From the NCBI GenBank assembly GCA_052387215.1, contig JBQTJK010000040.1, positions 2,530 to 66,529 on the forward strand: a DNA stretch of 64,000 nt, in the 5' to 3' direction. Below are positions 5,811 through 22,080 of the stretch, piece by piece. Positions within the stretch are counted from its first letter, which is position 1, and each line of letters opens with the position of its first letter. The position numbers and the translations under genes are program-made. Under the pieces are notes generated by a model, which was given only the letters and a program-made list of their open reading frames with translations, was not told the origin of the DNA and ran no database searches. Source of the stretch: Caulobacteraceae bacterium. GTDB taxonomy: Bacteria; Pseudomonadota; Alphaproteobacteria; Caulobacterales; Aquidulcibacteraceae.

Positions 5811-6181
5811 ACAAACGGCCCGCCGGCCAGCGAGGACCCGATAAAGAGCAAACCGATCTCTTCGGCGCGGTCACTGTGCAACCACCGCAAAAGAAGACGC
5901 GCCGGGCGCCTCATGCTCATCCTCATTTCGCGCAAACACGATCGCCGTCTGCATTGACTTCGGCAAGCAAGGGCGTTGCAAGCGCCGCCGCGAATGGACT
6001 CCTGAACGTGCGTCAGGCCGCCCAGCGCCTTGGTCTTTCGAAATCGACGCTCGACAAAATGCGCTGCGCCGGCAAGGGTCCCCGCTTCATTAAGTCGACC
6101 GACAGAGCCGTCCGTTACGATCCTGTGGACCTCGATGCCTGGATCGCAAACCGGCGACGGACCAGCACCGCACAAGACTGA
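5807..6181 (+). CDS. AlpA/excisionase-like helix-turn-helix DNA-binding protein
   Basis: LLNVRQAAQRLGLSKSTLDKMRCAGKGPRFIK..VRYDPVDLDAWI is the winged-HTH pattern of Xis/AlpA proteins; ATGA overlap with trbI. Confidence 0.8.
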   Translation: MNKRPAGQRGPDKEQTDLFGAVTVQPPQKKTRRAPHAHPHFAQTRSPSALTSASKGVASAAANGLLNVRQAAQRLGLSKSTLDKMRCAGKGPRFIKSTDRAVRYDPVDLDAWIANRRRTSTAQD

Positions 6182-7001: not shown

Positions 7002-7814
7002 CTAGTTTTCGCTGACGCGAACCGGCTGGATCAACATCCGCTCGAGACGCAATTCCGCTGGGTCGCGAAATTGTTCGAGACCGATGATCATATCCTCGTG
7101 ACCATTCGCCGGTTGGGCGTGGTAGGTGCCAAACAACCGGTCCCACCACGGCAGATTGAAACCGAAATTGCTGTTCGTCTCATCCCGCCGCACCGAATGA
7201 TGCACGCGGTGCATGTCAGGCGTGACGACAATCAAGCGCAACATCCGATCAAGCGGCGCGGGAAGCTGGACGTTGGCATGATTGAACATCGTCGTGGCGT
7301 TGAGCAGCACCTCGAAGATCAAGACGGCGAGCGCCGGCGCGCCCAGCGCCAAGACCGCGCCTATCTTAATCAGCATCGAGAGCAAAATCTCGATCGGGTG
7401 AAACCGCACGCCGGTGGAGACGTCGAACTCAAGATCAGCATGATGGAGCCGATGAAGCCGCCACAGCCAAGGCACGGCGTGAAACACACGGTGCTGCCAA
7501 TAGATCACAAGATCGAGTGCGACCACTGAGCCCAAGATTGTAACCAGCGTTGGCGCGGCGATCACCTGAAACAGCCCCCAGCCATGCGATTCAGCTAAGA
7601 TCGCCGCACCGACCGCCGCCGCTGGAAAGGCGATGCGGAGCAAAACCGTGTTGATGATGGAAAGGCCGAGGTTACCTGGCCATCTGCTTGATCTTGCAAC
7701 GGCCTGAGACCGTTTGGGCGACATCACCTCCCAGATCGCCATGGCCGCGAATACGCCAACAAAAGCGCCGAGACGGATGAAAGGCTCGTTTGCCAACAAC
7801 GCTTGCCCAATCAC
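7002..7814 (-). CDS. Sterol desaturase / fatty acid hydroxylase family membrane di-iron enzyme
   Basis: His boxes YWQHRVFH, HRLHH, RFHP, HRVHHS; GTGA overlap with the upstream gene. Confidence 0.9.
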   Translation of the reverse strand: MIGQALLANEPFIRLGAFVGVFAAMAIWEVMSPKRSQAVARSSRWPGNLGLSIINTVLLRIAFPAAAVGAAILAESHGWGLFQVIAAPTLVTILGSVVALDLVIYWQHRVFHAVPWLWRLHRLHHADLEFDVSTGVRFHPIEILLSMLIKIGAVLALGAPALAVLIFEVLLNATTMFNHANVQLPAPLDRMLRLIVVTPDMHRVHHSVRRDETNSNFGFNLPWWDRLFGTYHAQPANGHEDMIIGLEQFRDPAELRLERMLIQPVRVSEN

Positions 7815-8593
7815 TCCAATTGGCTTTGAAAGGCGCGGATGCGCGCTGCATTCGCGCCAAGGTCGGATATGCCAACGCGCGACGTCGATCGCACCTCAAT
7901 GCGCGATCCCGCCGCCGCCGGCGAAACCTGCACCACGATGTCATCGACAAAGCCGAACCACAAAGAGCGTGCGCTCGCTTCGATACGGCCGCTTGCCGGC
8001 TCGGCGGCATCGATGCTCCATCCCTGCGCCTGCGCGGCGGCCAGCGCGGCCTCGAACGCTTCAGCGGGCTGCCGATCGAGCAGGATGGGCTGAATGTCGG
8101 GATAGGCGTTTTGTTGCAGAGCGCGCGCGGATTGGCCGGCCGCGGCGCCAAAGCGTGGATCGTCGGGGACGCGCGGATCAGCTTCGACCGGGTTGCCGCC
8201 CGGCACGCCGGCGCGCAGCTGCAGGACCCGCTCCGAAAACATCAATGGCGCGGCGGGATCGGAGACGATGTCGTGGATCGGCGGAACCGAAGCTGCTTGA
8301 TTGCGGACGTAACCAGCGTAGCCCAGCGCCAGCACCGGAATGATGAGCGCAAGCAGCGCACTGCCAATGCCGGTGCGGGGCCTCACCAAGGCTGCGAGCA
8401 GCAGCGCCACCAACGCGAGCCCAGCTGCGCCCATCAGCAGCATCGGCCCATAGCCCAGCGTCAGCGTCCCAAAGCCAACGCGCCAATCGATCAACCCATA
8501 ACGCGTCGCAAGCGCCGCCGCGGCGAAATAGACCGGCAGCGCAAGCGACACGAGAAGCGCAACCCCGACCAGAAAAGACCTGATCCGCGTCAT
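7811..8593 (-). CDS. DUF1499 domain membrane protein
   Basis: Three N-terminal TM helices, PPIHDIVSD, WFGFVDDIVVQV..RSTSRVGISDLGANAARI. Confidence 0.88.
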   Translation of the reverse strand: MTRIRSFLVGVALLVSLALPVYFAAAALATRYGLIDWRVGFGTLTLGYGPMLLMGAAGLALVALLLAALVRPRTGIGSALLALIIPVLALGYAGYVRNQAASVPPIHDIVSDPAAPLMFSERVLQLRAGVPGGNPVEADPRVPDDPRFGAAAGQSARALQQNAYPDIQPILLDRQPAEAFEAALAAAQAQGWSIDAAEPASGRIEASARSLWFGFVDDIVVQVSPAAAGSRIEVRSTSRVGISDLGANAARIRAFQSQLE

Positions 8594-9192
8594 CCACCCC
8601 TCCTTCTGGCCAGCTCCTGGCGCCAGCGGCGATAGCTTGGCCCGTCGTCTACGTCTTCCAATTCCCGCAGCATCTCAACATTCTTTCCCGCCAGGTTACG
8701 AAGCGTATCGGCGCGCGCCTGCGGCGTCGACCAGCGAACATTCGCGAACGGCAAATGCTGGCGCTCAGTTTGTGGGAAACCAACCAGCCAATAGCCGCCG
8801 TCGGGCGCGGGCCCCAGCACAGCGTCGGCGTTCTCCAATGCGTCGAATGCCGCCGCAATGTCGGCGGCGATGACCTGGGGCGCATCGCTGCCGATGAAAA
8901 TAAGTGACCCAGACGCCAATCGCTCGGAGATGCGCGTCATGCGTTCGCCCAGATCGCCTTCACCCTGGCCGATGACGTGCATGACGCCCGCAAACTGCAA
9001 AGGCTCGTCGGGCGTGATAGCTAAGTGAAGGCGCCAACGCGGGTCGCCGCCGAGCCTATCCAGAAGCTGTCCCAAGACGACGCGTTGGAAGCGGTGCGCC
9101 GTAACATCGCCCACGTCCGCTGCAAGCCGGCGCTTACCTTGGCCAAGAACGGGCCTGCGCGCCATCAAAACGAGATGACGCTCAGCGTTCAT
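8590..9192 (-). CDS. TIGR04282/DUF2064-like transferase (CofC-like nucleotide-diphospho-sugar transferase fold; arsenosugar-cluster associated)
   Basis: LVLMARRPVLGQGKRRLA, QGEGDLGERM, IGSDAP, VLGPAPDGGYWLVG, LEDVDD; start re-assigned to ATG 9192. Confidence 0.88.
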   Translation of the reverse strand: MNAERHLVLMARRPVLGQGKRRLAADVGDVTAHRFQRVVLGQLLDRLGGDPRWRLHLAITPDEPLQFAGVMHVIGQGEGDLGERMTRISERLASGSLIFIGSDAPQVIAADIAAAFDALENADAVLGPAPDGGYWLVGFPQTERQHLPFANVRWSTPQARADTLRNLAGKNVEMLRELEDVDDGPSYRRWRQELARRRGG

Positions 9193-9850
9193 AGAAGCGC
9201 GCAATGCGTTCGATCGGCGCGCCCACGCTGAACATAGTGAGACAGACAAGGTTGCGCGCGCTGCGCGCCACCCAGCCATCATCGCGCCAGCGCTGCGCCG
9301 ATGTAATCGCCGTACAAGGCAATGCCCTCAATCTACGCCGGCCGAGCCGGCGAACAAGATCGACATCCTCCATCAGCGGGAGCGGACGAAAGCCGCCAAG
9401 CGCCGCGTAAAGGCGCCGATGGATCAGGAGACCCTGATCTCCATAAGGCAGCGCAAGGACCTTGACCCGCAGCGCGACGAGCGCTTCCAACACGCGCGCT
9501 TGCCAGGCGCGATCGCCGAGCTTGAAGCGGAATACACACGCGATATCGGCCGCATTCGAGCTGCGCATATGCGCGTCGACATGTGTACGCCAATCCGCCG
9601 CGAGGACCGTGTCCGCGTGGAGAAAGAGCAGCCAGTCCTCTGTCGCCGCTTCGGCGCCAGCGTGCATTTGCTGTCCCCGCCCCCGCTCCGCTGTGACGAC
9701 GCGGGCGCCGGCGGCGCGGGCGAGGCGCACGCTCGCGTCTAGAGAGCCGCCATCAACGACGATGATTTCTTCGGCCGCCGCGATCGACCGAAGCGTCGCC
9801 GGCAAGCTCGCTTCGGCATTCAGCGCCGGGATGATGAGGGAAACACCCAT
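9182..9850 (-). CDS. TIGR04283-like family 2 glycosyltransferase (arsenosugar-cluster associated)
   Basis: SLIIPALNAE, VVDGGSLD, GRGQQMHAGA, LLFLHADT, YGDQGL, LMEDVDL, TSAQRW. Confidence 0.9.
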   Translation of the reverse strand: MGVSLIIPALNAEASLPATLRSIAAAEEIIVVDGGSLDASVRLARAAGARVVTAERGRGQQMHAGAEAATEDWLLFLHADTVLAADWRTHVDAHMRSSNAADIACVFRFKLGDRAWQARVLEALVALRVKVLALPYGDQGLLIHRRLYAALGGFRPLPLMEDVDLVRRLGRRRLRALPCTAITSAQRWRDDGWVARSARNLVCLTMFSVGAPIERIARFYER

Positions 9851-9873
9851 TGGTCCTACATGGTCGCTTCAGT

Positions 9874-9899
9874 TCGGGCTTGGCAAGGGCGGCGGTTAC
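9874..9899 (-). promoter_or_regulatory. ECF-sigma-type promoter GTAACC-N17-CGAA for the GT2-TIGR04282-DUF1499-desaturase operon
   Basis: Minus strand reads aGTAACCgccgcccttgccaagccCGAAct, about 25 nt before ATG 9850; resembles the SigF/ECF16 consensus; spacer one base longer than the other copies. Confidence 0.55.
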
Positions 9900-9920
9900 T
9901 GCGACGGCTGCGTAGAGGCT

Positions 9921-9946
9921 GCAACCCGCGTCGCGGTGGGCGCGTA
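9921..9946 (+). promoter_or_regulatory. ECF-sigma-type promoter GCAACC-N16-CGTA for dedA-oxidoreductase-mtnP
   Basis: GCAACC cgcgtcgcggtgggcg CGTA, 46 nt before GTG 9993. Confidence 0.65.
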
Positions 9947-9992
9947 TCCAGATTGGGCGGGCTCGTGCTGCATCGGTACGGGAGGATGAAGC

Positions 9993-10727
9993 GTGGCAGA
10001 TAGCGAGCAAGCGGCGCCGGTTCGGCGCGGCGTGATAGGGCGAGTGGCGCTGGTTGGCATGCTAGCGCTTGCGCTCCTTGCGGCATGGCAATTCGGCCTC
10101 TTCGACTATCTCAACTTCGAAGCCCTACGGGCGCAGCGCGAGGACTTGTCCGCCTTCGTTGCCGCCAATCGGGTTCTGGCGTTCGCCGCCTTTGTTGCGG
10201 TCTACGTGCTCGTGACGGCGCTCGCGTTTCCAGGCGCATTCTGGGTCACGATCCTAGGCGGCTATTTGTTCGGTTTGGCTGGCGGCGCCATCGCCACGAC
10301 CATCGGCGCCACTTTAGGCGCGACAGCGTTATTCGTGATCGCGCGCTATCTGCTTGCCGATACATTGCGCGCGCGCGCCGGTCCTTTTCTGAAGCGCTTG
10401 GAAGCCGGCTTCCAGGAAAACGCCGTCAGCTATTTGCTGACGCTGCGCCTTGTTCCGGTCGTGCCGTTCTTCATCGCCAATGTCGCACCCGCTTTTCTCG
10501 GCGCGCGTTTGGCCACGTTCGCCTGGACGACTGCGGTCGGCATCATCCCCGGCGTCATTGCTTACACCTGGATTGGCGCAGGCCTCGGCGCAGCGTTTGA
10601 CGCCGGCGAAGCGCCCGACATCGCAGCGTTCGCACGCGAGCTGGCCCCTGCTTTCATCGCGTTGGCGCTGCTTACCATTGCGCCGGCGATCTATCGCCAG
10701 TTCAAACGTCCAAGGACCGCCACCTAG
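9993..10727 (+). CDS. TVP38/TMEM64 (DedA / VTT domain) membrane protein
   Basis: FPGAFWVTILGGYLFG, GATLGA, LRLVPVVPF..N, TAVGIIPG; GGAGG ribosome site. Confidence 0.92.
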   Translation: MADSEQAAPVRRGVIGRVALVGMLALALLAAWQFGLFDYLNFEALRAQREDLSAFVAANRVLAFAAFVAVYVLVTALAFPGAFWVTILGGYLFGLAGGAIATTIGATLGATALFVIARYLLADTLRARAGPFLKRLEAGFQENAVSYLLTLRLVPVVPFFIANVAPAFLGARLATFAWTTAVGIIPGVIAYTWIGAGLGAAFDAGEAPDIAAFARELAPAFIALALLTIAPAIYRQFKRPRTAT

Positions 10728-10740
10728 GAAACAAATCGCA

Positions 10741-12171
10741 ATGGAAAGCATCAAAGCCGACATCGCCATCATCGGCGCCGGCTCGGCCGGACTGGTCGCG
10801 GCCTCGGGGGCCGCACAGCTCGGCCAGAGAGTCGTGCTGTTCGAAGGCGGCGAAATGGGCGGCGACTGCCTGAACTATGGTTGTGTGCCCTCAAAATCAC
10901 TGATCGCTGCGGCGCGCGCAGCGGAAGGCGCGCGCGCCTCCGGCCCTCTCGGCTTGGAGATGACGCCGCCACGGACCGACTGGCCCCGCGTCAGAGCGCA
11001 CGTGCGTGGCGTGATCGACACAATCGCGCCAAACGACAGCCAAGAGCGCTTCGAGGGCCTGGGCGTGCGGGTCGTGCGCGAACGCGCGCGCTTTGCCGAC
11101 CCGCGTACGATCGTCTCAGAGAGCGTGCGCGTACGCGCGCGCATCATGGCGATCGCCACCGGCGCACGCGCCGGCGCTCCACCCATTCCGGGCTTGAGCG
11201 AAGTCCCCTATCTCACCAACGAAACCATCTTCGACATCGAGACGCTGCCCGCTCATCTTGTGATCCTGGGCGCAGGCGCGATTGGCTTGGAACTTGGACA
11301 AGCGTTTCGCCGCCTGGGCGCCGAGGTTACGCTGCTTGAGGCCGGCACGCTCTTCGGCGGCAAAGACAAAGGGGCGGCGGACGTTCTGCGCGCAAAGATG
11401 GCCGCAGAAGGGGTGACCCTGCTCGAATCCACGAACGTGCAGCGGATCGAAAACGCGGACGGCGCCATCGCCGCACACATCGAAAGAAACGGCGCCGCCA
11501 CACGGATCGAAGGCACGCATCTACTGGTCGCAACTGGGCGCAAACCCAACATCGAAGATCTAGGACTCGAAGCCGCTGGCGTCGCGTTCAGCGCGCCCGG
11601 TGTTACAACCGACGCAACACTGCGCACGTCCAATCGGCGCATCTACGCACTTGGCGACGTCGCCTCGCGCGAGCAGTTCACGCATGCCGCCGGCCTCCAT
11701 GGCTCATTGTTCGTACGCAACGCCCTCTTCAAACTATCACCCGGTCGCGCTGATGCGCCGCCCATCCCTCGTGTCATCTACACTGAGCCCGAATATGCAG
11801 CTGTTGGCCTTTCAGAGGCGGAAGCGCGGGAACGCTGGGGCGATCAGGTGCGCGTACTCTTTGTGCCGATGCACGACAATGACCGCGCCCAAACCGAGCG
11901 CGATGTTGAAGGTTTCGCCCGCATCATCGTTCGCAACACTGGCGATATCCTGGGCGCGGTCATCGTCGGCGCGCATGCCGGCGAAACAATTGCGACCGTC
12001 GCGCTGGCGATGGCCAACAAACTCAGAATAGCCGCCTTCACCTCAAGCTTTGTGCCCGCCTATCCGACCCGCGCGGAAATCTTGAAGCGCGCCGCAGGCC
12101 AGTTCTACACAGAGAGCCTGTTTTCCTCGCGCACCAAGCTTTTGGTACGCCTGCTCGCACATCTGCCTTGA
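10741..12171 (+). CDS. FAD-dependent pyridine nucleotide-disulfide oxidoreductase (dihydrolipoamide dehydrogenase/MerA-like family, not MerA)
   Basis: GAGSAG (FAD), GGDCLNYGCVPSK redox disulfide, GAGAIG (NAD(P)H), GD motif; start ATG 10741; no HMA domain or C-terminal Cys-Cys. Confidence 0.9.
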   Translation: MESIKADIAIIGAGSAGLVAASGAAQLGQRVVLFEGGEMGGDCLNYGCVPSKSLIAAARAAEGARASGPLGLEMTPPRTDWPRVRAHVRGVIDTIAPNDSQERFEGLGVRVVRERARFADPRTIVSESVRVRARIMAIATGARAGAPPIPGLSEVPYLTNETIFDIETLPAHLVILGAGAIGLELGQAFRRLGAEVTLLEAGTLFGGKDKGAADVLRAKMAAEGVTLLESTNVQRIENADGAIAAHIERNGAATRIEGTHLLVATGRKPNIEDLGLEAAGVAFSAPGVTTDATLRTSNRRIYALGDVASREQFTHAAGLHGSLFVRNALFKLSPGRADAPPIPRVIYTEPEYAAVGLSEAEARERWGDQVRVLFVPMHDNDRAQTERDVEGFARIIVRNTGDILGAVIVGAHAGETIATVALAMANKLRIAAFTSSFVPAYPTRAEILKRAAGQFYTESLFSSRTKLLVRLLAHLP

Positions 12172-12181
12172 GAGGAATCCG

Positions 12182-13057
12182 ATGACCACATGGCGCTTGG
12201 GCGTGATCGGCGGTTCGGGGCTTTATGACATCGACGCCATAGAGGACCGGCGCTGGTCGCGCATCCTCAGTCCCTGGGGTGAGGCTTCGGACGAGGTTCT
12301 GACCGGCGTCCTCCACGGCGTGCCGCTTACATTTCTGCCAAGGCACGGCAGAGGCCACAGGCTCTCACCGTCAGCCATCAACGCGCGCGCCAATATCGAC
12401 GTGCTGAAGCGGGCGGGCTGCACCGACATTCTCTCCATCGCAGCAGTAGGATCTTTGCGCGAAGATCTGCCGCCCGGCGCTTTTGTGCTCGCGGATCAAT
12501 ATATCGATTGCACGCGCGCGCGCCCGCAGAGTTTCTTTGGTGAAGGGCTCGTTGCGCATGTCGCGATGGCCAACCCGGTCTGCCCGCGGCTCTCGGCGCT
12601 GGTGCGCGACGCCGGCGCCCGCGCCGGTGTCGAGATCGGCGGCGGCGCTACATATTTGGCGATGGAGGGTCCGCAATTTTCAACGCGGGCGGAGAGCCGT
12701 CTTTACCGCAGCTGGGGATGCGACGTCATTGGCATGACGGCGATGCCAGAAGCACGCTTGGCGCGCGAGGCCGAACTTCCCTATGCAGCACTTTGCATGG
12801 TCACCGACTACGATTGCTGGCGTACAGATGATGCGGATGTCGATGTCGGCGCCATCCTTTCGGTGATGCGCGCCAATGCCGAGGCTGCCCGCCGCGTGAT
12901 TGCCGACCTGGTGCAGCATCTCAGTCAAACCCAGCGTCCGCCTTCGCCGATCGACACCGTGCTCGATTCCGCGATCGTCACCGATCCAGCGATCTGGGAT
13001 CAAGCGCTCATGAGCAAGCTGGACGCGATCTGCTCGCGGCGTTTCGCCAAAACGTGA
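12182..13057 (+). CDS. mtnP: S-methyl-5'-thioadenosine phosphorylase family (PNP/MTAP)
   Basis: GVIGGSG, LPRHGRGH, EGPQFSTRAES, IGMT..PEARLAREA, VTDYDCW. Confidence 0.92.
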   Translation: MTTWRLGVIGGSGLYDIDAIEDRRWSRILSPWGEASDEVLTGVLHGVPLTFLPRHGRGHRLSPSAINARANIDVLKRAGCTDILSIAAVGSLREDLPPGAFVLADQYIDCTRARPQSFFGEGLVAHVAMANPVCPRLSALVRDAGARAGVEIGGGATYLAMEGPQFSTRAESRLYRSWGCDVIGMTAMPEARLAREAELPYAALCMVTDYDCWRTDDADVDVGAILSVMRANAEAARRVIADLVQHLSQTQRPPSPIDTVLDSAIVTDPAIWDQALMSKLDAICSRRFAKT

Positions 13058-13071
13058 AAAGCGCCGGCCGC

Positions 13072-14028
13072 TCAGGCCGAACAGCTGCCGCCGCCAAGAA
13101 CACAAAATTTGGCGCAGTGGCGGTGGTTGAGCTTCACTGGCGCCACCGCGCCCTTAAGCGTTGGTCCAAGTTCGAAGCCCTGATCGTACGGCAACAAGGT
13201 GCAGGCAAGCACGGCCGGGGCGGCAGCGCCGGCGCGCTTGACCAGCATGCGCGCGCTTGCACACATCATCGCGCGCGGATCGACGTTGAGAATGTCCCAG
13301 CATTTCTCGCTGATCTCCGGCACGTCGACGCTCTCGTCCATCTCTGGGAAAAGCATGAGCTTCGCGGGATCGTAAGCATTGATCCCCCAGCCTTGGGCCG
13401 CGCTCAAGCGCGCATAGCCGGCCCGCGCCTGCGCTTCGCTTTCATGCCAAAGCGTCCGCCCCGCAAGTGAAATCCCAAATCCGTTGGCGATGAGCCAAGC
13501 GATGCCGTCAATCGTCTCCTCAAAGCCGCCGGGGCCGCGCTCTTCGTCATGACGGTCCGCGCTATAATGATCGAGGCTCACCCGAAGCGCCAATCGCGAA
13601 GCGTAAGCCTGTCGCAGGCCAAGAAGTGCGGCGCGCGGTTTGGGCCGCATCATCGGCCGCATCGCGTTGGTGAGAATGAGCACCAGATGCCCGCGCGCCA
13701 GCACCATTTCGGCGAGATCGCCCATGTGCGGGTTCATGAAAGGCTCGCCGCCGGTGAACCCAACTTCAATTGGCTCTGGGCTAAGAGCTTCGGCCTCCGC
13801 CAGGAACGGCGCGAGGTCGGCGGGGGTGAAATAGCTCAGCCGGTCGTTGGTGGGCGAGCTCTCAATGTAGCAGTTGGCGCATGTGATGTTGCAGAGCGTG
13901 CCAGTATTGACCCAGAGCGTCTTCAAGCTGTCGAACGCCACCACCGCCCGCGCCTCACCTTTCGCGGTGAGATCGGGATCCGAGAATTTGCCGGCGCCGA
14001 TGTGGCGGGTTTGTGCATCCACGCTCAT
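13072..14028 (-). CDS. Radical SAM protein with Cys-rich C-terminus, ArsS-like
   Basis: LWVNTGTLCNITCANCYIESSP (CxxxCxxC), FTGGEPF, LTN; C-terminal MC..C..HCAKFCVLGGGSC; start ATG 14028 overlaps the arsM stop (TGATG). Confidence 0.85.
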   Translation of the reverse strand: MSVDAQTRHIGAGKFSDPDLTAKGEARAVVAFDSLKTLWVNTGTLCNITCANCYIESSPTNDRLSYFTPADLAPFLAEAEALSPEPIEVGFTGGEPFMNPHMGDLAEMVLARGHLVLILTNAMRPMMRPKPRAALLGLRQAYASRLALRVSLDHYSADRHDEERGPGGFEETIDGIAWLIANGFGISLAGRTLWHESEAQARAGYARLSAAQGWGINAYDPAKLMLFPEMDESVDVPEISEKCWDILNVDPRAMMCASARMLVKRAGAAAPAVLACTLLPYDQGFELGPTLKGAVAPVKLNHRHCAKFCVLGGGSCSA

Positions 14029-15089
14029 CAGCAGCATCCCGGCGCCGGCGCCGCCCCAACGTCTGCCTCTGCGAAAGGCGCTTCGGCGCCGCAACCGGGA
14101 AATATCCCGAAGTGTCTCGCGAAATCGCCGATGAACTCGAAGTGCGGCGTAAAGCGGCTTTCCCGCAACATGCGCCAAGTGTTGCCGCACACCGCAAAGA
14201 CCTTACCCGCCTCGATCCGGTGATGGGCATCAAGCTCAAACACAGTTTCGGCGCCAGTGACGCCGCCACGATAGATGACGGCCTGGCCATAATCTTCGCA
14301 CGCAGGCTCTAGATCGGGAATGTTGTAGAGCCGGTAGGTCGCCGAGTAAAAGCGCGCCGCGCCGAGTAGCGAGGCGAGTGTTGCGTCGGTAATGGCGAGC
14401 GCCCTCGATTTGACCAAGCGCGGATCTGGAAATCCGCTCGCGCGCGCCAAGTGTTGAAAGTCGTTCCAGTAAAGCGCGCCCGCCAAACACTCCCCGTGCA
14501 GCACCGGATCAGTCTTCAGCGCTTCGGGCAGACGCCGGTCAGCGTAGACATCGGCGAAGTAAAATTCGCCGCCAGCTTTGAGCAGCGCACGCGCCGCCGC
14601 GAACACAGCAGCCTTGTTCTCAACCAGATTGATCACGCAATTGGAGACAATCACGTCGAAGCTCTCCGGTTGGAGCCCAAGAGTGTCCAATTGGGTGATA
14701 TCGCCGTCCACGAAAGTCACGTTTGACCGGGAATAGCCGAACTGCTCGCGGTGCCACTCGGCGTGTTGACGGGCGACGCTCAGCTGCTCAGGTGTTGCAT
14801 CGACGCCAACGACCGCGCCGCGCGCGCCGACAAGTTGCGCCAACACGTACACATCTCGGCCCGCGCCGCAGCCCAGATCGAGAACGCGCGCGCCCTCTAG
14901 CTTCGCTGGTGCAACTAGCCCACAACCGTAGTAACGAGCTTCGACCTCGGGATGGACCCGTCTAAGGGCCGCTTCGACCAGGGCGCCCGGTCGATCGGCG
15001 GTCGAGCAGGCGTCGGTGCGTAAGTCGCGCGATCCGCCCAACACCTTGCCGTAATAATCGCGCGCATTCGCAAGCCCGCCATCCTCCAT
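14028..15089 (-). CDS. arsM: Arsenite S-adenosylmethionine methyltransferase (ArsM/AS3MT-type)
   Basis: Four Cys contexts typical of AS3MT: DLRTDACST, RYYGCGL, VSNCVINL, GECLAGALYW; SAM motif LDLGCGAGRD; ends PGCC; GGAG 8 nt before ATG 15089. Confidence 0.85.
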   Translation of the reverse strand: MEDGGLANARDYYGKVLGGSRDLRTDACSTADRPGALVEAALRRVHPEVEARYYGCGLVAPAKLEGARVLDLGCGAGRDVYVLAQLVGARGAVVGVDATPEQLSVARQHAEWHREQFGYSRSNVTFVDGDITQLDTLGLQPESFDVIVSNCVINLVENKAAVFAAARALLKAGGEFYFADVYADRRLPEALKTDPVLHGECLAGALYWNDFQHLARASGFPDPRLVKSRALAITDATLASLLGAARFYSATYRLYNIPDLEPACEDYGQAVIYRGGVTGAETVFELDAHHRIEAGKVFAVCGNTWRMLRESRFTPHFEFIGDFARHFGIFPGCGAEAPFAEADVGAAPAPGCC

Positions 15090-15118
15090 CGACACATCTC
15101 CGCTTTGTTTTCATTGAA

Positions 15119-15144
15119 TACGGGCGGCAGGCCCCAACGGTTTC
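15119..15144 (-). promoter_or_regulatory. ECF-sigma-type promoter GAAACC-N16-CGTA for arsM and the radical SAM gene
   Basis: Minus strand: GAAACC gttggggcctgccgcc CGTA, 29 nt before ATG 15089. Confidence 0.7.
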
Positions 15145-15174
15145 TGAACGGGCGGCCTTTGACCGATACCATAG

Positions 15175-15200
15175 GAAACCGAACGACCCGCTGGAGCGTA
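15175..15200 (+). promoter_or_regulatory. ECF-sigma-type promoter GAAACC-N16-CGTA for the DUF547 gene
   Basis: GAAACC gaacgacccgctggag CGTA, 31 nt before ATG 15232; back-to-back with the arsM copy. Confidence 0.7.
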
Positions 15201-15231
15201 GCATTCCCTGGGGCGAAGTCTGGGGGCCTTC

Positions 15232-16023
15232 ATGGGAGTTAAGAACTTGATACGGCGGTGTCTGCTGGCAGGCTTGACCCTCTCGTTTGTTCCTTCGGCG
15301 GCGATCGCAGCCGACGATCAGCCCTTCGATACGCTGCTGTCGCGCTATGTGGTGGTCTCGCCTGACGGGGTGAACCGGGTCCGGTATCGCGCCTGGGCCG
15401 CCAACACCGCTGACCGGGGCGCACTCGACGCCTATGTCGCCGCACTCGAACGCGAAGTCCCTTCCCGGATGGCGCGCAATGAAGCCTTTGCCTATTGGGC
15501 CAATCTCTACAACGCGGTGACGCTTCAAACCGTGCTGGAGAATTATCCTATCCGCTCGATCCGCGATGTTCGCAGCCGCACGCTCGATCCCCGCGGACTG
15601 ATCGGTCCGTGGCGAACCGAGCGCGTTCGCGTTGAGGGCCGACGCCTTACGCTTGACGCCATCGAGCATGACATTTTGCGGCCTACCTTTGGCGATCCGC
15701 GTGTGCACTATGCGGTCAATTGCGCCTCGATCGGCTGCCCCAACCTTCCGACCCGCGCCTGGCGCGCGGCAACGCTCGATCAAGACCTAGATGCCGCCGC
15801 ACGCGCCTATGTCAATCACAGACGCGGCGCGCGGTTCGACGCCAATGGGCGGCTGGAAGTCTCCAGTATCTATAACTGGTTCGCGAGGGATTTCGGCGGT
15901 TCACCAAATGGCGTGCTCGCGCATTTGCGCACCTACGCTGCGCCTGCGCTTTCGGAGCGTCTGCGATCGACACGCGTCGTCGCCGGCCATTCCTATGATT
16001 GGTCATTGAACGACGTAAACTAA
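15232..16023 (+). CDS. DUF547 domain exported protein
   Basis: Signal peptide; AYWANLYNAVT, TLDAIEHDILR, DPRVHYAVNCASIGCP, SSIYNWF..DF, YDWSLND. Confidence 0.92.
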   Translation: MGVKNLIRRCLLAGLTLSFVPSAAIAADDQPFDTLLSRYVVVSPDGVNRVRYRAWAANTADRGALDAYVAALEREVPSRMARNEAFAYWANLYNAVTLQTVLENYPIRSIRDVRSRTLDPRGLIGPWRTERVRVEGRRLTLDAIEHDILRPTFGDPRVHYAVNCASIGCPNLPTRAWRAATLDQDLDAAARAYVNHRRGARFDANGRLEVSSIYNWFARDFGGSPNGVLAHLRTYAAPALSERLRSTRVVAGHSYDWSLNDVN

Positions 16024-16043
16024 GCCATGCGAGCCAGTCTCGC

Positions 16044-16698
16044 TCACTCTCGTTCCTCCCTCTCGGGCCGGTACCATCGTTCGAGCCGCTCTGGCGCAAC
16101 GCCTAAATGATAGAGCCCTACCAGAATAGCGCTCATGAACTCGCGCCGCGCCACGCCATCGCGCAGAAACCGCCGCGCCGAAGTGGTCATCGGCGCACTG
16201 AGCTTCGCAATCCGCCCGGCCCGGCGCAGCCGCTGAAGAATCTCAACATCCTCAAAAAGCGGTAGATCGCGATAACCGCCGATCTGGTCGTAGGTCTCTC
16301 GCGTCACAAACAGACCCTGATCGCCATAGGTAAAAGCGCTCGTGTTGATACGGCTCATGAAGGCATAGACCCTGAGCAAGGGGTGGGCGTCATCGAAGGC
16401 GAGCCTGAAACACCCGGCGCTGACACCCGGGCGCGCCAGCGCCGCCTTAATCAGTACACGTGCTTCAGGCGGAGGCTTGGAATCCGCGTGAACGAAGAAG
16501 AGCGCCTCGCCCGAGGCCGCGCGCACTCGTCACCAATACGGCGCCCGCGGCGCGCGCCTCGGCATGCGTCTCATCGCGCGACCCACCATCGGCGACGACA
16601 ATGTCGTCGAAACCTTGTGACCGCAGCGCCGCAACAAGCGCGCCAATGCGCGCGCCTTCGTCGAGAGCCGGAATGACAACGCTGATGCGCATCTTCAA
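16044..16698 (-). pseudogene. Second TIGR04283-like GT2 glycosyltransferase, broken by an internal deletion/frameshift at 16516-16524
   Basis: Frame A: MRISVVIPALDE..VADGGSRD..VTSARG; frame B: AASGEALFFVHADS..YGDQGL..LFEDVE..TTSARRF; the GRGxQMxAGA segment present in the paralogue is missing. Confidence 0.85.
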
Positions 16699-17300
16699 GG
16701 TCGCGACACGCGCATGACCTCCACCCTCACCGCCTCCAGCACGCGCGGCGCGTCGCGCCGCATGCCGGCGCGAATAAGGCCAGACGGCAGCGGCGCGCGT
16801 GGCGCCAGGTAGAAATCATAGTGAAGCCGCGTCGCCTGCCCGCCTTCGCGTGGCTCCAGCACCCACGAGCCTTGCATGGAAGCCAGATCGCCGCTGATTC
16901 GATTGACCCGGATCACGCGCTCGGGCTCATACTCGGAACGAAAGCGCAGCCGCAACGTCGGCAGCAGCGCCAGCCAACGTATGCGATGCTCGCGCACGTC
17001 GCTCAATCCGTCGGCGGCGCGCTCGATTATGGCGCATGATTGAAGGCCCGGAACATAATGAGGGGCTCGTGCACAATCGAGCATAACCCTCCAGACGAGA
17101 GCCGGCGGCGCTGCAATGTCGATCGCCGCCTGCACCCGCCCACCTGGGCCCGCCGCGTCAACCACACGCGCGATCGCTTCGCCGCGCTCCAACCGCGCCT
17201 CGTCATCGGTGTTCCATTGGGCCATCGCGATGGTGGGCCAAAGCACAAGCGCGCACGCCGCTAGAAGCGCCGCCCCCACCCTTCGATGCAAAGCAAGCAT
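16695..17300 (-). CDS. SRPBCC/START (polyketide cyclase-like) ligand-binding protein with signal peptide
   Basis: AAIDIAAPPALVWRVMLDC..PHYVPGL..C, GDLASMQGSWVLEP; start ATG 17300, 4 nt after the PiT stop. Confidence 0.8.
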   Translation of the reverse strand: MLALHRRVGAALLAACALVLWPTIAMAQWNTDDEARLERGEAIARVVDAAGPGGRVQAAIDIAAPPALVWRVMLDCARAPHYVPGLQSCAIIERAADGLSDVREHRIRWLALLPTLRLRFRSEYEPERVIRVNRISGDLASMQGSWVLEPREGGQATRLHYDFYLAPRAPLPSGLIRAGMRRDAPRVLEAVRVEVMRVSRP

Positions 17301-17304
17301 GGGC

Positions 17305-18387
17305 TTAGCCTCCAATGCCGTGAAAGATAAGCCAAGCACAAACCGCCGCGAACGGCAGCGTCGCCACCCAAGACGCCAACACAGTGCGCACGGCTCGCCA
17401 GTCGACGGTCCGCGCCTGGGCCCCAACGCCCGCGATCGCGCCAACTGACACGTGCGTCGTTGAGACCGGCAACGCAAACGCACTAGCGCTCAAGACTAAT
17501 GTCGCCGTGACAAGATTGGCGGTGAGACCTTGCGCGGGATCCAAGCGATTAAGGCGCAAGCTCATGGTCTCGGCGACGCGGCGCGAAAATAGGAACCCGC
17601 CCGCAACCATCGCCACCCCGGTCAGCACCGCGGGTCCCGCCCCGCCAAAGCCTTGCGCCACTAGAAGCAAAGCGGCGAGCTTGGGCGTGTCATTGGTGCT
17701 TCGGGCAAAGCATACAATTGCCGCCGACGCGATGTGCACGCGGTCGAGCACGGCGCCAGCGGCCACGCGCACCTGCGTCTCTAGCAAGCGATTGCAAACT
17801 TCAGCACTTGAGAAGGTAGCGCTCGCCCGCTGCATGCTCGGTGAGCGCGCTGCGGCCGTTGCCGCTGGTGCAAACTCGGCTTCACGGGTGACACACATGC
17901 AATCGCGTCCGCGCAGGCGCTCACCGGCGAGCCACTGCGCGACAAAGCCAAAGGCAGCCGAGACGATCGGGCTTAACAGGAGCGGCGCGACGAAGACCGC
18001 CGCGAGCGCGCCGAGATTGACATCGCCCGCGGCAAGCCCCGCTCCGAGCAATCCGCCGATGAGAGCGTGGGTGGTGGATATGGGCAACGCCGCCCGCGTA
18101 GCGGCCAGCACAGTGATGGCCGCGCCCGCTGCGACCGCGGCCAAGAAAGCTGGATCGGCGATGACCGCGTCGCCAACCAGGCCCTTGCCGGAAAACTGGC
18201 GGGTAAGGCCGCTCGCCAACACCACCGACACAACGCTACCCGCCGCCGTGGCGAAGCTCGCCCAGAGAAGCGCTGCGCGATAGCCGAGCGCGTTCGATCC
18301 CCAGACCGTGGCGAAGCCCTTGAAATTGTCATTGGCGCCGTTGGCGAACGCGAGGAACACACCTGCCGTGAGGATGAATATCTCCAT
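17305..18387 (-). CDS. Inorganic phosphate transporter, PiT family
   Basis: Signature motifs GANDNFKGFAT and (A)RSTNDTPK, PISTTHALIG, PVSTTHVSVG; many TM helices. Confidence 0.9.
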   Translation of the reverse strand: MEIFILTAGVFLAFANGANDNFKGFATVWGSNALGYRAALLWASFATAAGSVVSVVLASGLTRQFSGKGLVGDAVIADPAFLAAVAAGAAITVLAATRAALPISTTHALIGGLLGAGLAAGDVNLGALAAVFVAPLLLSPIVSAAFGFVAQWLAGERLRGRDCMCVTREAEFAPAATAAARSPSMQRASATFSSAEVCNRLLETQVRVAAGAVLDRVHIASAAIVCFARSTNDTPKLAALLLVAQGFGGAGPAVLTGVAMVAGGFLFSRRVAETMSLRLNRLDPAQGLTANLVTATLVLSASAFALPVSTTHVSVGAIAGVGAQARTVDWRAVRTVLASWVATLPFAAVCAWLIFHGIGG

Positions 18388-18448
18388 GATGCGCGCCGCC
18401 AGCTAATGGCGCGCGCCATGGGCGAGCGCTCCAGTATTCCCGAGAAAC

Positions 18449-18474
18449 TACGCGCGAGAGCAATCGGCGGATGC
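18449..18474 (-). promoter_or_regulatory. ECF-sigma-type promoter variant GCATCC-N16-CGTA for PiT-SRPBCC-GT2
   Basis: Minus strand: GCATCC gccgattgctctcgcg CGTA, 61 nt before ATG 18387. Confidence 0.55.
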
Positions 18475-18504
18475 AGAGGGGTCATCGACTCGCACGACTT
18501 GTGT

Positions 18505-18530
18505 GAAACCAAAGGCTGTCACCGCGCGTA
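18505..18530 (+). promoter_or_regulatory. ECF-sigma-type promoter GAAACC-N16-CGTA for msrB
   Basis: GAAACC aaaggctgtcaccgcg CGTA, 9 nt before ATG 18540. Confidence 0.7.
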
Positions 18531-18539
18531 CAAGCGCTC

Positions 18540-19028
18540 ATGGACCTCATGCGACGCGGCGCGCTTTCCGGCGCCCTGCTTGTCACAATGCTCGGGAGCG
18601 CGTCGGCGCAGACGCTGGATTTCTCCAGCGCGCCTGAACGGCGGTTAAGCGAACAAGAATGGCGCCGGCGCCTCACGTCCAGCGCCTATAACATTCTGCG
18701 GCGCCATCATACGGAGCTTCCTTTCTCGAGTCCGCTGAATGGCGAGCGGCGAGCGGGCGTCTATGCGTGCGGGGGCTGCGCCTTGCCGCTCTTCCAGTCA
18801 CATTGGAAGTACAATTCCGGGACCGGTTGGCCGAGTTTTTTTCAGGTCATAGACGGTCATGTCGGAACCCGCGTCGACCGCGGCTTCGCCATGGTGCGCA
18901 CCGAATATCATTGCGCCCGATGCCTCGGCCACCAGGGACACCTCTTCGATGACGGGCCTCGCCCAAGCCGTCTGCGTTACTGCAACAATGGCGCGGCTTT
19001 GAGCTTCACGCCCAACAGCGCAGACTAA
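18540..19028 (+). CDS. msrB: Peptide-methionine (R)-S-oxide reductase MsrB with export signal
   Basis: CxxC pairs (CGGC, CARC), SGTGWPSF, RTE, GHLFDDGP, RYCNNG. Confidence 0.95.
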   Translation: MDLMRRGALSGALLVTMLGSASAQTLDFSSAPERRLSEQEWRRRLTSSAYNILRRHHTELPFSSPLNGERRAGVYACGGCALPLFQSHWKYNSGTGWPSFFQVIDGHVGTRVDRGFAMVRTEYHCARCLGHQGHLFDDGPRPSRLRYCNNGAALSFTPNSAD

Positions 19029-19160
19029 AGGCGCTCGCACAGGCGCCGTTGCGGCGCGGTGCGGAGATTCGCATCACGGAACCCGCTTCGCGCGATGATC
19101 TACGCCTTCGCAGAGCGCGTACCTCAGCAGACGCCGTTTGCGCGTCCAGTGGAGGTCTTC

Positions 19161-19763
19161 ATGATCGCGAAAACATCAATCGCTGCTTTGGCTGCACTGA
19201 GTGCGGCTTTGTTGATCGGCGGCTGCACCATGCATGGGTCCGGCGACGGCGGGGCGAGCGCCGCAAGCGGCGAACGCAGTGTGACGGTTGGCGGCGCGCC
19301 CATGTATCCCTCGCGCAATATCGTCGAGAACGCCGTCAACTCCCGCGATCACACGACGCTCGTCGCCGCAGTCCAGGCGGCGGGCTTGGTGGAGACGTTA
19401 TCGGGGCCCGGCCCTTTCACCGTCTTTGCGCCGACAAATGCGGCGTTCGATAAACTCCCGCCCGGCACGGTGGACACCTTGGTCCAGCCCGCCAATCGCG
19501 CCACGCTGACGCGCATCCTGATCTATCATGTTGTCCCAGGGCGGCTGACGTCGGCGGACTTGGCGCAGCGCGTGCGCGCCGGCAACGGCCGCGCGGTGCT
19601 CACAACTGCGCAGGGCGCGACGCTCACGGTGACCCAATCAGGCAGCGGCGTAACTGTCACTGATGCAGCTGGTGGCGCGGCGACGGTCACTATCGCGGAC
19701 GTGCTTCAATCCAACGGCGTCATTCACGTCGTCGATACGGTGCTCATGCCGCCGCAAAGCTGA
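19161..19763 (+). CDS. Fasciclin (FAS1) domain lipoprotein
   Basis: GGAGG then ATG 19161; lipobox IGGC; GPFTVFAPTNAAF, YHVVPG, SNGVIHVVDTVLMP. Confidence 0.93.
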   Translation: MIAKTSIAALAALSAALLIGGCTMHGSGDGGASAASGERSVTVGGAPMYPSRNIVENAVNSRDHTTLVAAVQAAGLVETLSGPGPFTVFAPTNAAFDKLPPGTVDTLVQPANRATLTRILIYHVVPGRLTSADLAQRVRAGNGRAVLTTAQGATLTVTQSGSGVTVTDAAGGAATVTIADVLQSNGVIHVVDTVLMPPQS

Positions 19764-19779
19764 ACGGCGACAAACGGTA

Positions 19780-20000
19780 GATACTGTTGAAAAACTCCGA
19801 TTTCGGCGAGACGCGAAATTTTGCTTGCCTGCTGAACCGCATTGCGCATCATCGACACGAAGGGATCGCGGCAGATGCCGAAAATCTCGCCCAGGAGCTT
19901 CGTGGCGCGTTGGCGCCGGCTTCCAATGAGATCGCTCCCTTGCAAATTCAAATCGACGAAAATCAAGCGCCAGGCCGCAAGCGAGTTTTTCAACAGCATC
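19780..20000. mobile_element. 221-bp MITE or internally deleted IS with 18-bp terminal inverted repeats and a 4-bp target duplication
   Basis: GATACTGTTGAAAAACTC (19780-19797) and GAGTTTTTCAACAGCATC (19983-20000) are inverted at 17/18 positions; GGTA on both flanks (19776-19779, 20001-20004); no transposase. Confidence 0.75.
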
Positions 20001-20001
20001 G

Positions 20002-20029
20002 GTAGAGGGCGTTCGCTGACGCCCTCTAC
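20002..20029. repeat. GTAG-initiated perfect hairpin (REP-like; possible bidirectional terminator)
   Basis: GTAGAGGGCG-N8-CGCCCTCTAC between the convergent fasciclin and CMD genes. Confidence 0.55.
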
Positions 20030-20107
20030 GGTAGGCAATGCCATCACTGTCTGCGGGCACGCACGCGAACGCATCGAGGCAGCGGCAGCGCGAAACAACA
20101 CGTTAAG

Positions 20108-20715
20108 TTATGCGTCGCCTTCATCAGCGCCGTGTTTGCCTGGACGCCATGACACTGCACTCAGGCTCCGCCTCCCAGCGTCTTGCGCCGCCGGCTCGAT
20201 AACCGTGCCCATCCCATCGTTCCAGCGATTGAGGAACCCGAACAGGGAGATGACGCCCATCAGCTCGACCAACTCACCTTCGTCCCAATAGCCGCGAACC
20301 CGCGTGATCAGCGCGTCGTCAATGGAGCTTGGCTGTGTCGCGCCCGCCAGCGCCAGATCGAACGCGGCTTTTTCGGCATCGGTGAAGAAATCACTGTGCT
20401 GATAGCTCCAAAGCGCTTCGATCCGCGCTTGGCTTGCGCCAAATCGCTCCGCCGCCAGGCCGTATGGGCTTGACAATAGAGGCACCCGGCGGCTTGCGAT
20501 GCGATGAGCGCGACCAGCCGTTTCTGCTCGCTCGTGATCCTGCCATGATTGTCCATCACCGCCTTGTTGAGCGCGATGAAGGCGCGCGCGATTTCGGGCC
20601 GGCGCTGCATGGTGAGAACGCTGTTGGGCGGAAATCCCAATGTCGTATTGAAGAAGCGCGCGAGTTCGGCGGTTTCGGAATCTGCGCCAAGCGGCAGCGG
20701 ATCAACAAGCGGCAT
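20108..20715 (-). pseudogene. Carboxymuconolactone decarboxylase / AhpD-like protein with a one-base frameshift near 20460
   Basis: N-part ..ALIASQAAGCLYCQAHT (CxxCxxH); C-part LAAERFGAS..FTDAEKAA..ISLFGFLNRWND in the next frame; restoring one C (ACG GCC CTG) rejoins them; may be a sequencing error. Confidence 0.8.
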
Positions 20716-21792: not shown

Positions 21793-22007
21793 ACCCCGCC
21801 AACAGCGGGATCGACGCGTCCGGGAAACAATCAGTTCATAATGCAACGGCGCGAGCGCGCGTTTTCGCCTTCGATCCAGAGGTAGCAACACCAGGAAACA
21901 CCGACACGCTAGCCACCTTCGCGCATGTTCCGGGCGTGGAGCCCGCGGGCGTTCGTTAGAACCCCAGCGCCCAATTCCTCATCGGCGCACGGGTGAGGAC
22001 GGGGCGG

Positions 22008-22080
22008 TGGGCCCGCCTGGACTCGAACCAGGAACCAGACCGTTATGAGCGGCCGGCTCTAACCATTGAGCTACGGGCCC
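22008..22080 (-). tRNA. tRNA-Ile2 (anticodon CAU, lysidine-type); 3' end encoded as ACCG, so no complete CCA
   Basis: GGGCCCGTAGCTCAATGGTTAGAGCCGGCCGCTCATAACGGTCTGGTTCCTGGTTCGAGTCCAGGCGGGCCCA folds into a cloverleaf with a paired G1-C72 (not fMet); overall sequence fits Ile2 better than elongator Met. Confidence 0.9.

Follow-up and report, generated by a model that had tools for sequence, protein, structure and literature searches.

A conserved gene cluster coupling ArsM to an unnamed radical SAM family beside conjugation genes in an alphaproteobacterium: a candidate arsenosugar pathway

Gene content of the cluster

The DNA analysed here (the window) comprises 64,000 nucleotides of contig JBQTJK010000040.1 (positions 2,530 to 66,529; assembly GCA_052387215.1) from a Caulobacteraceae bacterium placed by GTDB in the Aquidulcibacteraceae, and harbours, between 7.0 and 20.7 kb, a gene cluster that includes an arsenite methyltransferase gene (ArsM) and an adjoining gene for an enzyme of the radical S-adenosylmethionine (SAM) type. 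An original prediction, made from the sequence alone, had described this cluster as a candidate complete arsenosugar/arsenolipid biosynthesis system on an accessory island. Open reading frames of the window were filtered by G+C content at third codon positions (GC3) and then scanned against Pfam and NCBIfam, which resolved the cluster into seven transcription units:

Unit (i), minus strand, with an overlap at each gene junction
9850-9182, minus strand: GT2a, an intact TIGR04283 family-2 glycosyltransferase (TIGR04283, 214.3 bits versus a cutoff of 182)
9192-8590, minus strand: TIGR04282-like (DUF2064, CofC-related) putative nucleotidyltransferase, 200 amino acids (TIGR04282, 132.5 bits)
8593-7811, minus strand: DUF1499 protein with three N-terminal transmembrane-like segments (Pfam DUF1499, 88 bits)
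7814-7002, minus strand: membrane enzyme of the fatty-acid hydroxylase/desaturase superfamily (Pfam FA_hydroxylase, 110 bits)
Unit (ii), plus strand
9993-10727, plus strand: DedA/VTT-domain membrane protein (Pfam VTT_dom, 70 bits)
10741-12171, plus strand: class-I pyridine-nucleotide (flavoprotein) disulfide oxidoreductase, 476 amino acids, with redox-active CLNYGC (Pfam/NCBIfam)
12182-13057, plus strand: MTAP-family 5'-substituted-adenosine phosphorylase (TIGR01694, 282.4 bits versus a cutoff of 274.85)
Unit (iii), minus strand
15089-14028, minus strand: ArsM/AS3MT-type As(III) S-adenosylmethionine methyltransferase, 353 amino acids (structure-sequence matches)
14028-13072, minus strand: radical SAM enzyme, 318 amino acids, with CX3CX2C and a Cys-rich C-terminal domain (profile and sequence comparison)
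Unit (iv), plus strand, a single gene
15232-16023, plus strand: periplasmic DUF547 protein (signal peptide) carrying the motif NCASIGCP (Pfam DUF547, 85 bits)
Unit (v), minus strand
18387-17305, minus strand: PHO4/PiT-family anion transporter, 360 amino acids (Pfam PHO4, 192 bits)
17300-16695, minus strand: SRPBCC/START-like ligand-binding protein with a signal peptide (Pfam/NCBIfam)
16692-16044, minus strand: GT2b, a second TIGR04283 glycosyltransferase, frameshifted (193.9 bits when read through)
Unit (vi), plus strand
18540-19028, plus strand: MsrB (SelR) with a signal peptide (Pfam/NCBIfam)
19059-19763, plus strand: fasciclin-domain lipoprotein (domain scan)
Unit (vii), minus strand
20715-20108, minus strand: CMD/AhpD-like peroxidase-related gene, frameshifted (Pfam/NCBIfam)

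These scans confirmed the predicted MTAP-family phosphorylase, DedA protein, disulfide reductase, desaturase, SRPBCC protein, PiT transporter and MsrB, and yielded three genes missing from the earlier list, namely those of the DUF1499, DUF547 and fasciclin proteins. The predicted TIGR04282-like transferase falls marginally below the TIGR04282 cutoff of 134 and clearly within Pfam DUF2064 (95.3 bits versus a cutoff of 25.8), and matches PDB entry 3cgx (E value 1.5e-12). Its gene meets the DUF1499 gene in an ATGA overlap, and the fatty-acid hydroxylase gene, the last of the GT2a operon, has a GTG start overlapping the DUF1499 stop; the hydroxylase carries the His boxes HRVFH, HRLHH and HRVHH and matches the OlsE model weakly (93 bits versus a cutoff of 475). 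The MTAP-family phosphorylase matches MTAPs in the PDB with E values as low as 4e-73, the sequence of the disulfide reductase lacks the MerA-type C-terminal Cys pair, and the best NCBIfam matches of the PiT protein, sulfate permease (51 bits) and PitA (32 bits), are both far under cutoff. A PDB sequence search with the DUF547 protein gave nothing useful. Signal-peptide-like N-termini were recognized in the DUF547, SRPBCC and MsrB proteins, a lipoprotein-type signal preceded by a short N-terminal extension in the fasciclin protein, and transmembrane-like segments in the DUF1499, DedA, PiT and hydroxylase proteins; because such features recur in so many products, much of the cluster would act in the envelope. 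The gene content of the locus is real, and its clustering is more than chance.

ArsM and the coupled radical SAM enzyme

The methyltransferase aligns end to end with ArsM structures, most closely with 5evj from Chlamydomonas (E value 9.4e-107, residues 5-340), and also with 4fr0 from Cyanidioschyzon (1.6e-79), 4kw7 (about 1.5e-79) and 8xt7 (2.7e-76). The four conserved, catalytic cysteines, Cys30 (DACST), Cys58 (YGCG), Cys153 (SNCVINL) and Cys203 (GECLAGALY), align to these structures as the equivalents of C44, C72, C174 and C224 of CmArsM, so that the 5evj and 4fr0 alignments bear out the predicted AS3MT-type enzyme with all four Cys contexts. Judged by this homology, the protein is a genuine ArsM by enzyme class. 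It nevertheless scores under the curated NCBIfam cutoffs, with 152.3 versus 263 bits for PRK11873 and 77.7 versus 400 bits for the cyanobacterial arsenosugar model NF038099, two models that do not cover this algal-like ArsM subtype; the ArsM models of arsinothricin systems are likewise far from reached (122 versus 500 and 57 versus 240 bits).

The ArsM stop codon TGA and the radical SAM start codon ATG share one base (TGATG), in agreement with the translational coupling proposed earlier. ArsM also lies directly upstream of the radical SAM gene at loci L081-L084, L088, L175 and L176, the two genes overlapping in L081-L084 and standing 12-38 nt apart in the other three. As a separate observation, the C-terminus of ArsM (14028-14036) ends in a vicinal Cys-Cys (...APGCC) whose codons lie within the overlap with the radical SAM start; this pair could hold trivalent arsenic for transfer to the next enzyme.

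The radical SAM protein contains CNITCANC and six further conserved cysteines, with the C-terminal end HCAKFCVLGGGSCSA, which agrees with the CxxxCxxC enzyme with a Cys-rich tail described in the original prediction. Assignment to ArsS was not upheld: the TIGR04167 score is 58.9 bits against a cutoff of 300 and covers model positions 5-151 of 303, which correspond to the cluster-binding core, and even at E values up to 1 the protein showed neither DUF3641 nor any other C-terminal Pfam domain. DUF3641 is the Pfam name for the C-terminal domain of ArsS. Nine further members of the family were scanned, eight of them single-domain proteins and one the P0244 fusion described below; all fell short of the TIGR04167 cutoff, and ArsS is the second-best named family both for the window protein and for most of these members. 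An hhalign comparison with a profile of three annotated ArsS proteins gave a probability of 98.8% (E value 1e-16), confined to 166 N-terminal columns, i.e. the core. Compared with HCFGCTAGxGSSCSG at the end of ArsS, the tail HCAKFCVLGGGSCSA is similar but differs in Cys spacing, the pattern HC..C..G.GS(S)CS being similar in both families. Since the TIGR04167 cutoff is not reached and the profile match is limited to the core, the enzyme is to be regarded as a distant relative of ArsS and not as a member; these comparisons place it in a large family of Alphaproteobacteria that has no name, and whose members are labelled in source records merely as "radical SAM protein". A structural clue to function was also sought and dropped, as the structure, although predicted with confidence (pLDDT 86.6), retrieved only generic SPASM/twitch-type enzymes (DesII, SkfB, anSME) with TM-scores of at most 0.58; a PDB sequence search gave nothing useful.

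Conservation, regulation and setting

The radical SAM family is present in many Alphaproteobacteria, among them such marine groups as Hyphomonadaceae, Maricaulaceae, Rhodobacteraceae, Parvibaculaceae and Erythrobacteraceae. Its gene neighbourhoods were surveyed in 80 species genomes and 80 metagenome loci, ArsM being sought within 10 kb. The cluster families recur together in at least eight differently arranged loci. The entire cluster is found in the order of the window in the nearest relatives, L084 and L088 (radical SAM proteins 72-75% identical). Loci L081-L083 have the order GT2b, DUF547, ArsM, radical SAM, patatin; L175 has ArsM, radical SAM, SRPBCC and GT2, then DUF547, sigma factor, NrsF, VTT, reductase and CMD; and L176 has DUF1499, ArsM, radical SAM and GT2, then DUF547, sigma factor and NrsF. 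In Erythrobacter arachoides, the radical SAM and reductase genes are divergent from ArsM, epimerase, GT2 and TIGR04282 genes. A Roseomonas plasmid carries TIGR04282, DUF547, a second radical SAM gene, the family radical SAM gene, a Phn-type ABC transporter and a metallophosphoesterase, followed by DUF547, reductase, VTT and GT2. The DUF1499 gene is kept in L084, L088, L089, L173 and L176, and the MTAP gene adjoins the family radical SAM gene in L084, L088, L089 and L093. MsrB is a loosely conserved neighbour only, and the fasciclin gene was not found with the cluster in the relatives surveyed, one homologue lying about 4 kb from a standalone radical SAM gene in L129.

Among 1.8 billion representative proteins searched, the radical SAM family was found fused to TIGR04282 in P0244 and P0324; in P0244 the TIGR04282 part scores 163.6 bits against the cutoff of 134, and the radical SAM part is 55% identical. 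Other fusion partners of the family are metallophosphoesterase domains and an HD/5'-deoxynucleotidase-like domain. The P0244 locus (L173) also encodes two DUF547 proteins, a NupC nucleoside transporter, GT2, DUF1499 and hydroxylase proteins, and, from the gene immediately upstream of the fusion, a CDP-alcohol phosphatidyltransferase. At positions 757-2910 of the same locus, DedA/VTT and flavoprotein disulfide reductase form one fused protein of 717 amino acids; the corresponding window genes (9993-12171) therefore appear to work as a pair. Separately, a second radical SAM protein of about 460 amino acids adjoins DUF547 in L169 (8592-9971) and L170 (12065-13456), in the Roseomonas cluster and in the Burkholderia ArsS cluster; no B12 domain was found in it and no ArsM near either locus, and it may stand in for ArsM or perform another step.

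The predicted co-regulation of the cluster is supported by promoter motifs. The Caulobacter sigma-F site has the consensus GTAACC-N16-CGAA (PMC3511200), and the window was searched with the pattern G[ATC]AACC-N16-17-CG[TA]A, allowing up to two substitutions from the consensus as in that study. Seven sites were found versus 1.24 expected, five of them in the cluster's three divergent intergenic regions, each correctly oriented and 9-46 nt before a start codon:

9873-9899, minus strand: putative sigma-F-type promoter GTAACC-N17-CGAA, upstream of the GT2a operon
9921-9946, plus strand: putative sigma-F-type promoter GCAACC-N16-CGTA, upstream of the DedA-reductase-MTAP operon
15119-15144, minus strand: putative sigma-F-type promoter GAAACC-N16-CGTA, upstream of ArsM and the radical SAM gene
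15175-15200, plus strand: putative sigma-F-type promoter GAAACC-N16-CGTA, upstream of DUF547
18505-18530, plus strand: putative sigma-F-type promoter GAAACC-N16-CGTA, upstream of MsrB and the fasciclin gene

Only the GT2a site is free of base substitutions, its spacer of 17 nt being one longer than the consensus. The position orthologous to the DedA promoter holds a site in L084 (GTAACC-N15-CGTA), L088 and L089, the ArsM and DUF547 sites are both repeated in L081, L084, L088, L175 and L176, and the MsrB site in L084, L088 and L089. The sigF-nrsF genes themselves are located within the cluster in L084, L175 and L176, and in relatives this pair is also preceded by a sigma-F-type site; tblastn found no match to it in the window. 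Chromate, cadmium or reactive chlorine trigger SigF/NrsF systems, which have periplasmic methionine sulfoxide reductases under their control (PMC3511200, PMC4436054). Another candidate motif, TACGC-N15-GGTTWC, 70-80 nt upstream of minus-strand genes, was rejected: it is the reverse complement of the sigma-F-type promoter and thus drives the opposite gene of each divergent pair. Outside the cluster, a sixth motif (GCAACC-N16-CGTA, 36360-36385) lies 50 nt upstream of a sigma-70-family gene (36436-37350; 304 amino acids, regions 1.2, 2 and 4) that is probably RpoH-like, which suggests an extracytoplasmic function (ECF) sigma-dependent promoter on a heat-shock sigma gene.

Two genes of the cluster are frameshifted. 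In comparison with the intact L084 orthologue (226 bits), the first 62 residues of GT2b lie in one frame and residues 69-227 in another, the shift falling near 16507-16523; the CMD/AhpD-like gene is shifted directly after CLYCQAH, near 20455. Independently assembled contigs of the source run span both sites with no indel, so the frameshifts are in the reads. GT2b, to judge from its sequence, is therefore a pseudogene in this strain, and the cluster is here partly decayed, its second glycosyltransferase and AhpD-like gene being broken. Thus, of the two TIGR04283-like transferases predicted, GT2a stands as an intact gene and GT2b by family only, and the CMD/AhpD protein also retains its family assignment but not its integrity. 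Another CMD gene neighbours the cluster in L175. A contig from a second sample joins position 16446 to 17988, omitting 1541 bases (the 5' part of GT2b, SRPBCC and part of PiT); with just 21 bases on one side of the join, this could reflect an artefact of assembly or a variant with a deletion.

The idea of an accessory island agrees with the flanks of the cluster, as conjugation genes lie on one side, a tRNA gene on the other and a shift in GC3 near 21 kb:

106-6181, plus strand: Trb/VirB conjugative type IV secretion genes (Pfam/NCBIfam)
22006-22080, minus strand: tRNA-Met, its 3' end facing the island

The left flank encodes a VirB4/TraG P-loop part, TrbJ-like, TrbL, VirB8, CagX/TrbG and TrbI proteins, and then an HTH_17 excisionase-like protein. 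To the right, beyond 21 kb, GC3 climbs to about 0.80 from about 0.72, and cysS follows. Taken together, the conjugation genes, the excisionase-like gene, tRNA-Met and the GC3 shift give the cluster the appearance of cargo that an integrative conjugative element carries at one of its ends, with tRNA-Met as the probable integration site. No integrase gene was found among the open reading frames scanned and no att-type repeat of the tRNA-Met 3' end in the window, the far end of the element lying outside it. Just beyond the island, positions 24340-25575 encode a bacterial serpin (Pfam Serpin, 323 bits), a protein type uncommon in bacteria. Further on lies a PhoD-like alkaline phosphatase gene (32865-34712), which shows no linkage to the cluster; such phosphatases are markers of phosphate scavenging and arsenate enters cells via phosphate uptake, so this gene may bear on arsenic.

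Proposed pathway and comparison with known systems

From the enzyme classes, gene linkage, fusions and promoter motifs, all of which are demonstrated, we infer a pathway encoded at 7.0-18.4 kb. In our estimate, which is evenly poised between belief and doubt, the region would specify a stress-induced, horizontally carried route from arsenite to a 5-deoxy-5-dimethylarsinoyl-ribose unit on an envelope acceptor, probably a lipid. ArsM, assigned to its class by homology, would methylate As(III) to dimethylarsenite; the coupled radical SAM enzyme, a distinct family standing in for ArsS, would then add a 5'-deoxyadenosyl group. ArsS itself adenosylates dimethylarsenite, DMAs(III), to 5'-deoxy-5'-dimethylarsinoyl-adenosine (DDMAA) (PMC13598754, PMC12159101). 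The MTAP-family phosphorylase would next strip adenine to leave arsenoribose 1-phosphate, which would be activated with a nucleotide by the CofC-like TIGR04282 protein and transferred by a TIGR04283 glycosyltransferase. The DedA protein with the disulfide reductase and the DUF547, SRPBCC, DUF1499 and fatty-acid hydroxylase proteins would handle or modify the product in the envelope, the operons being presumably driven by the ECF sigma-F-type promoters. The predicted succession of adenosylation, adenine removal, activation and glycosyl transfer fits the MTAP, TIGR04282 and TIGR04283 families, and the same trio occurs in a Burkholderia ArsS cluster. The proposal gains further support from the TIGR04282 fusions, the MTAP adjacency and the remote ArsS homology of the radical SAM family, from the accessory genes that canonical ArsS clusters share with the window, and from Erythrobacter arachoides, where ArsM, radical SAM, reductase, GT2 and TIGR04282 genes are clustered in a different order, and a lipid acceptor is hinted at by the CDP-alcohol phosphatidyltransferase of L173 and by the signal peptides and transmembrane-like segments of several cluster proteins.

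Several observations weigh against this pathway. At about 150 of the 160 loci the radical SAM gene is solitary, ArsM not being found within 10 kb of it, and its conserved neighbours, where identified, are zwf, pgl, pgi, dcd and gyrA. L089 holds the same cluster without ArsM, PiT, SRPBCC and GT2b; neither the Roseomonas core cluster, with its phosphonate-type ABC transporter, nor the L173 fusion locus has ArsM within 10 kb. To these are added the low TIGR04167 score of the radical SAM enzyme, the lack of a recognizable C-terminal domain, the restriction of its ArsS profile match to the core, and the two frameshifted genes. Among the cluster genes, Pfam and NCBIfam revealed neither an arsenate reductase nor ArsR, and tblastn with one ArsR gave no match. 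The uptake and reduction steps of the original prediction have no sequence support, because no arsenate reductase was identified and the best named match of PiT is a sulfate permease; with two genes frameshifted, "complete" was too strong a word. As for the lone radical SAM genes, a functional partner was sought and rejected: their neighbours are housekeeping genes kept by lineage synteny and hence uninformative on function, and a fatty-acid hydroxylase 6-7 kb away in seven Parvibaculaceae-like loci was likewise judged to reflect synteny and not linkage.

The main rival, which we consider somewhat unlikely, holds that the conserved core (radical SAM, TIGR04282, TIGR04283, DUF547, DedA/reductase, DUF1499 and fatty-acid hydroxylase) serves to build an envelope compound without arsenic, starting from a 5'-deoxyadenosyl adduct, for example of a sulfur, selenium or phosphorus species, under sigma-F control in oxidative or metal stress, and that ArsM is a lineage-specific addition serving plain detoxification or feeding arsenic into a pre-existing pathway. 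Any arsenic specificity of the locus would come from ArsM by itself, because the core module also occurs without it in L089, L173 and Roseomonas, in the last with the Phn-type transporter, second radical SAM gene and metallophosphoesterase. The canonical ArsS clusters of Burkholderia and Hymenobacter also lack an annotated ArsM nearby, and the radical SAM family occupies core-genome positions in most Alphaproteobacteria surveyed. The type of regulon, a general envelope stress response (PMC3511200, PMC4436054), and the MsrB and AhpD-like neighbours, which suggest redox stress, point the same way. Against this explanation stand the ArsM/radical SAM overlap in the window and L081-L084, their adjacency in L088, L175 and L176, the single promoter that they share, and the separate linkage of ArsM in Erythrobacter. 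Moreover, elsewhere in these groups of bacteria ArsM is frequently found on its own, so that its absence from a cluster does not show its absence from the genome.

That the island in this strain is a decaying, largely non-functional remnant seems to us decidedly unlikely: the two frameshifted genes within 14 kb, supported by independent assembly, and the failure to find the relatives' sigma-F/NrsF pair in the window speak for it, but eleven genes of the core are intact and keep their conserved overlaps and promoters, GT2a is left as an intact TIGR04283 paralogue, and another part of the genome may encode the sigma factor. Finally, it is highly improbable that the joint product of ArsM and the radical SAM enzyme is some other organoarsenical, formed by transfer of a group other than 5'-deoxyadenosyl or by modification of a methylated arsenical, with the glycosyltransferase genes functionally separate. 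Radical SAM enzymes have more than one route to C-As bonds (PMC12159101), and the model score sets the family apart from ArsS, but ArsM scores well short of the arsinothricin models, the MTAP adjacency and TIGR04282 fusions indicate a nucleoside or sugar-phosphate product, and ArsS remains the second-best named family for the window protein and most members scanned.

Under the arsenosugar pathway proposed above, a broader and more tentative suggestion, which we hold to be less likely than not, is that the unnamed family is a second, non-orthologous ArsS, that heterotrophs make arsenosugars or arsenosugar lipids, that the MTAP-TIGR04282-TIGR04283 series represents the missing steps that follow dimethylarsinoyl-adenosine, and that the whole is switched on by SigF/NrsF. 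In the sea, arsenosugars and arsenolipids are among the major arsenic species. Of their biosynthetic enzymes, the literature searched yielded only the first two, ArsM and cyanobacterial ArsS, and no description of the present system turned up in searches on DUF2064 together with DUF547, on the later steps of arsenosugar synthesis and on arsenosugar gene clusters of bacteria. The compact conserved gene set offers a candidate enzyme for each later step, with a different radical SAM family in the ArsS position across many Alphaproteobacteria. If this family has ArsS activity, surveys based on TIGR04167 alone would miss much of the bacterial capacity for arsenosugars, and if it is indeed a second ArsS, producers would extend beyond algae and cyanobacteria to heterotrophs. 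The sigma-F promoters provide a concrete handle for induction of the pathway.

The closest known systems are those with ArsM and ArsS or with ArsS, TIGR04282 and TIGR04283. In Pseudanabaena, the canonical cluster has the order VTT, "mercuric reductase", ArsM, VTT, ArsS; Burkholderia thailandensis has TIGR04282, TIGR04283 and MTAP, then an ECF sigma/anti-sigma pair, ArsS, a radical SAM gene and DUF547; and Hymenobacter has DUF547, TIGR04283, epimerase and ArsS. As in the cyanobacterial systems, ArsM of the window adjoins a CX3CX2C radical SAM gene with a Cys-rich tail, and TIGR04283 and TIGR04282-like proteins, VTT/DedA with a "mercuric reductase"-like flavoprotein, DUF547 and MTAP are shared with ArsS clusters at large. 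Since canonical ArsS clusters carry the same accessories, the radical SAM family of the window occupies the place of ArsS; it is, however, another family, of which only the N-terminal core can be aligned with ArsS. The window ArsM is algal/AS3MT-like, unlike the NF038099 ArsM of cyanobacteria (570 bits in Pseudanabaena), and where the window has ECF sigma-F-type promoters, Pseudanabaena has an ArsR-family regulator gene about 4 kb upstream. The location beside conjugation genes is a further difference.

In arsinothricin synthesis (ArsQML), a radical SAM enzyme and an arsenic methyltransferase likewise cooperate in C-As bond formation, ArsL transferring a 3-amino-3-carboxypropyl group; in contrast, the window has nucleoside- and sugar-handling neighbours (MTAP, nucleotidyltransferase-like and GT2 proteins), no amino-acid exporter, and an ArsM outside the arsinothricin models. 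With HpnH- and MqnE-type enzymes the proposed step has in common that the 5'-deoxyadenosyl radical adds to its substrate rather than abstracting hydrogen, whereas the window enzyme belongs to neither family, matching HpnH weakly (32 bits) and resembling SPASM/twitch enzymes in structure. The SigF/NrsF (EcfF/OsrA) regulons described in PMC3511200 and PMC4436054 are small and centred on YedY/MsrP-type genes, and no arsenic methylation or glycosyltransferase genes were found among those reported there. The window shares with them GTAACC-N16-CGAA or its one- to two-base variants and a periplasmic methionine sulfoxide reductase, and L084, L175 and L176 share the sigF-nrsF pair itself, placed inside the cluster and not detected by tblastn in the window. 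The system is real and conserved, and is distinguished from the annotated ArsS/TIGR04282/TIGR04283 kind by its radical SAM family, its sigma-F control and its mobile setting.

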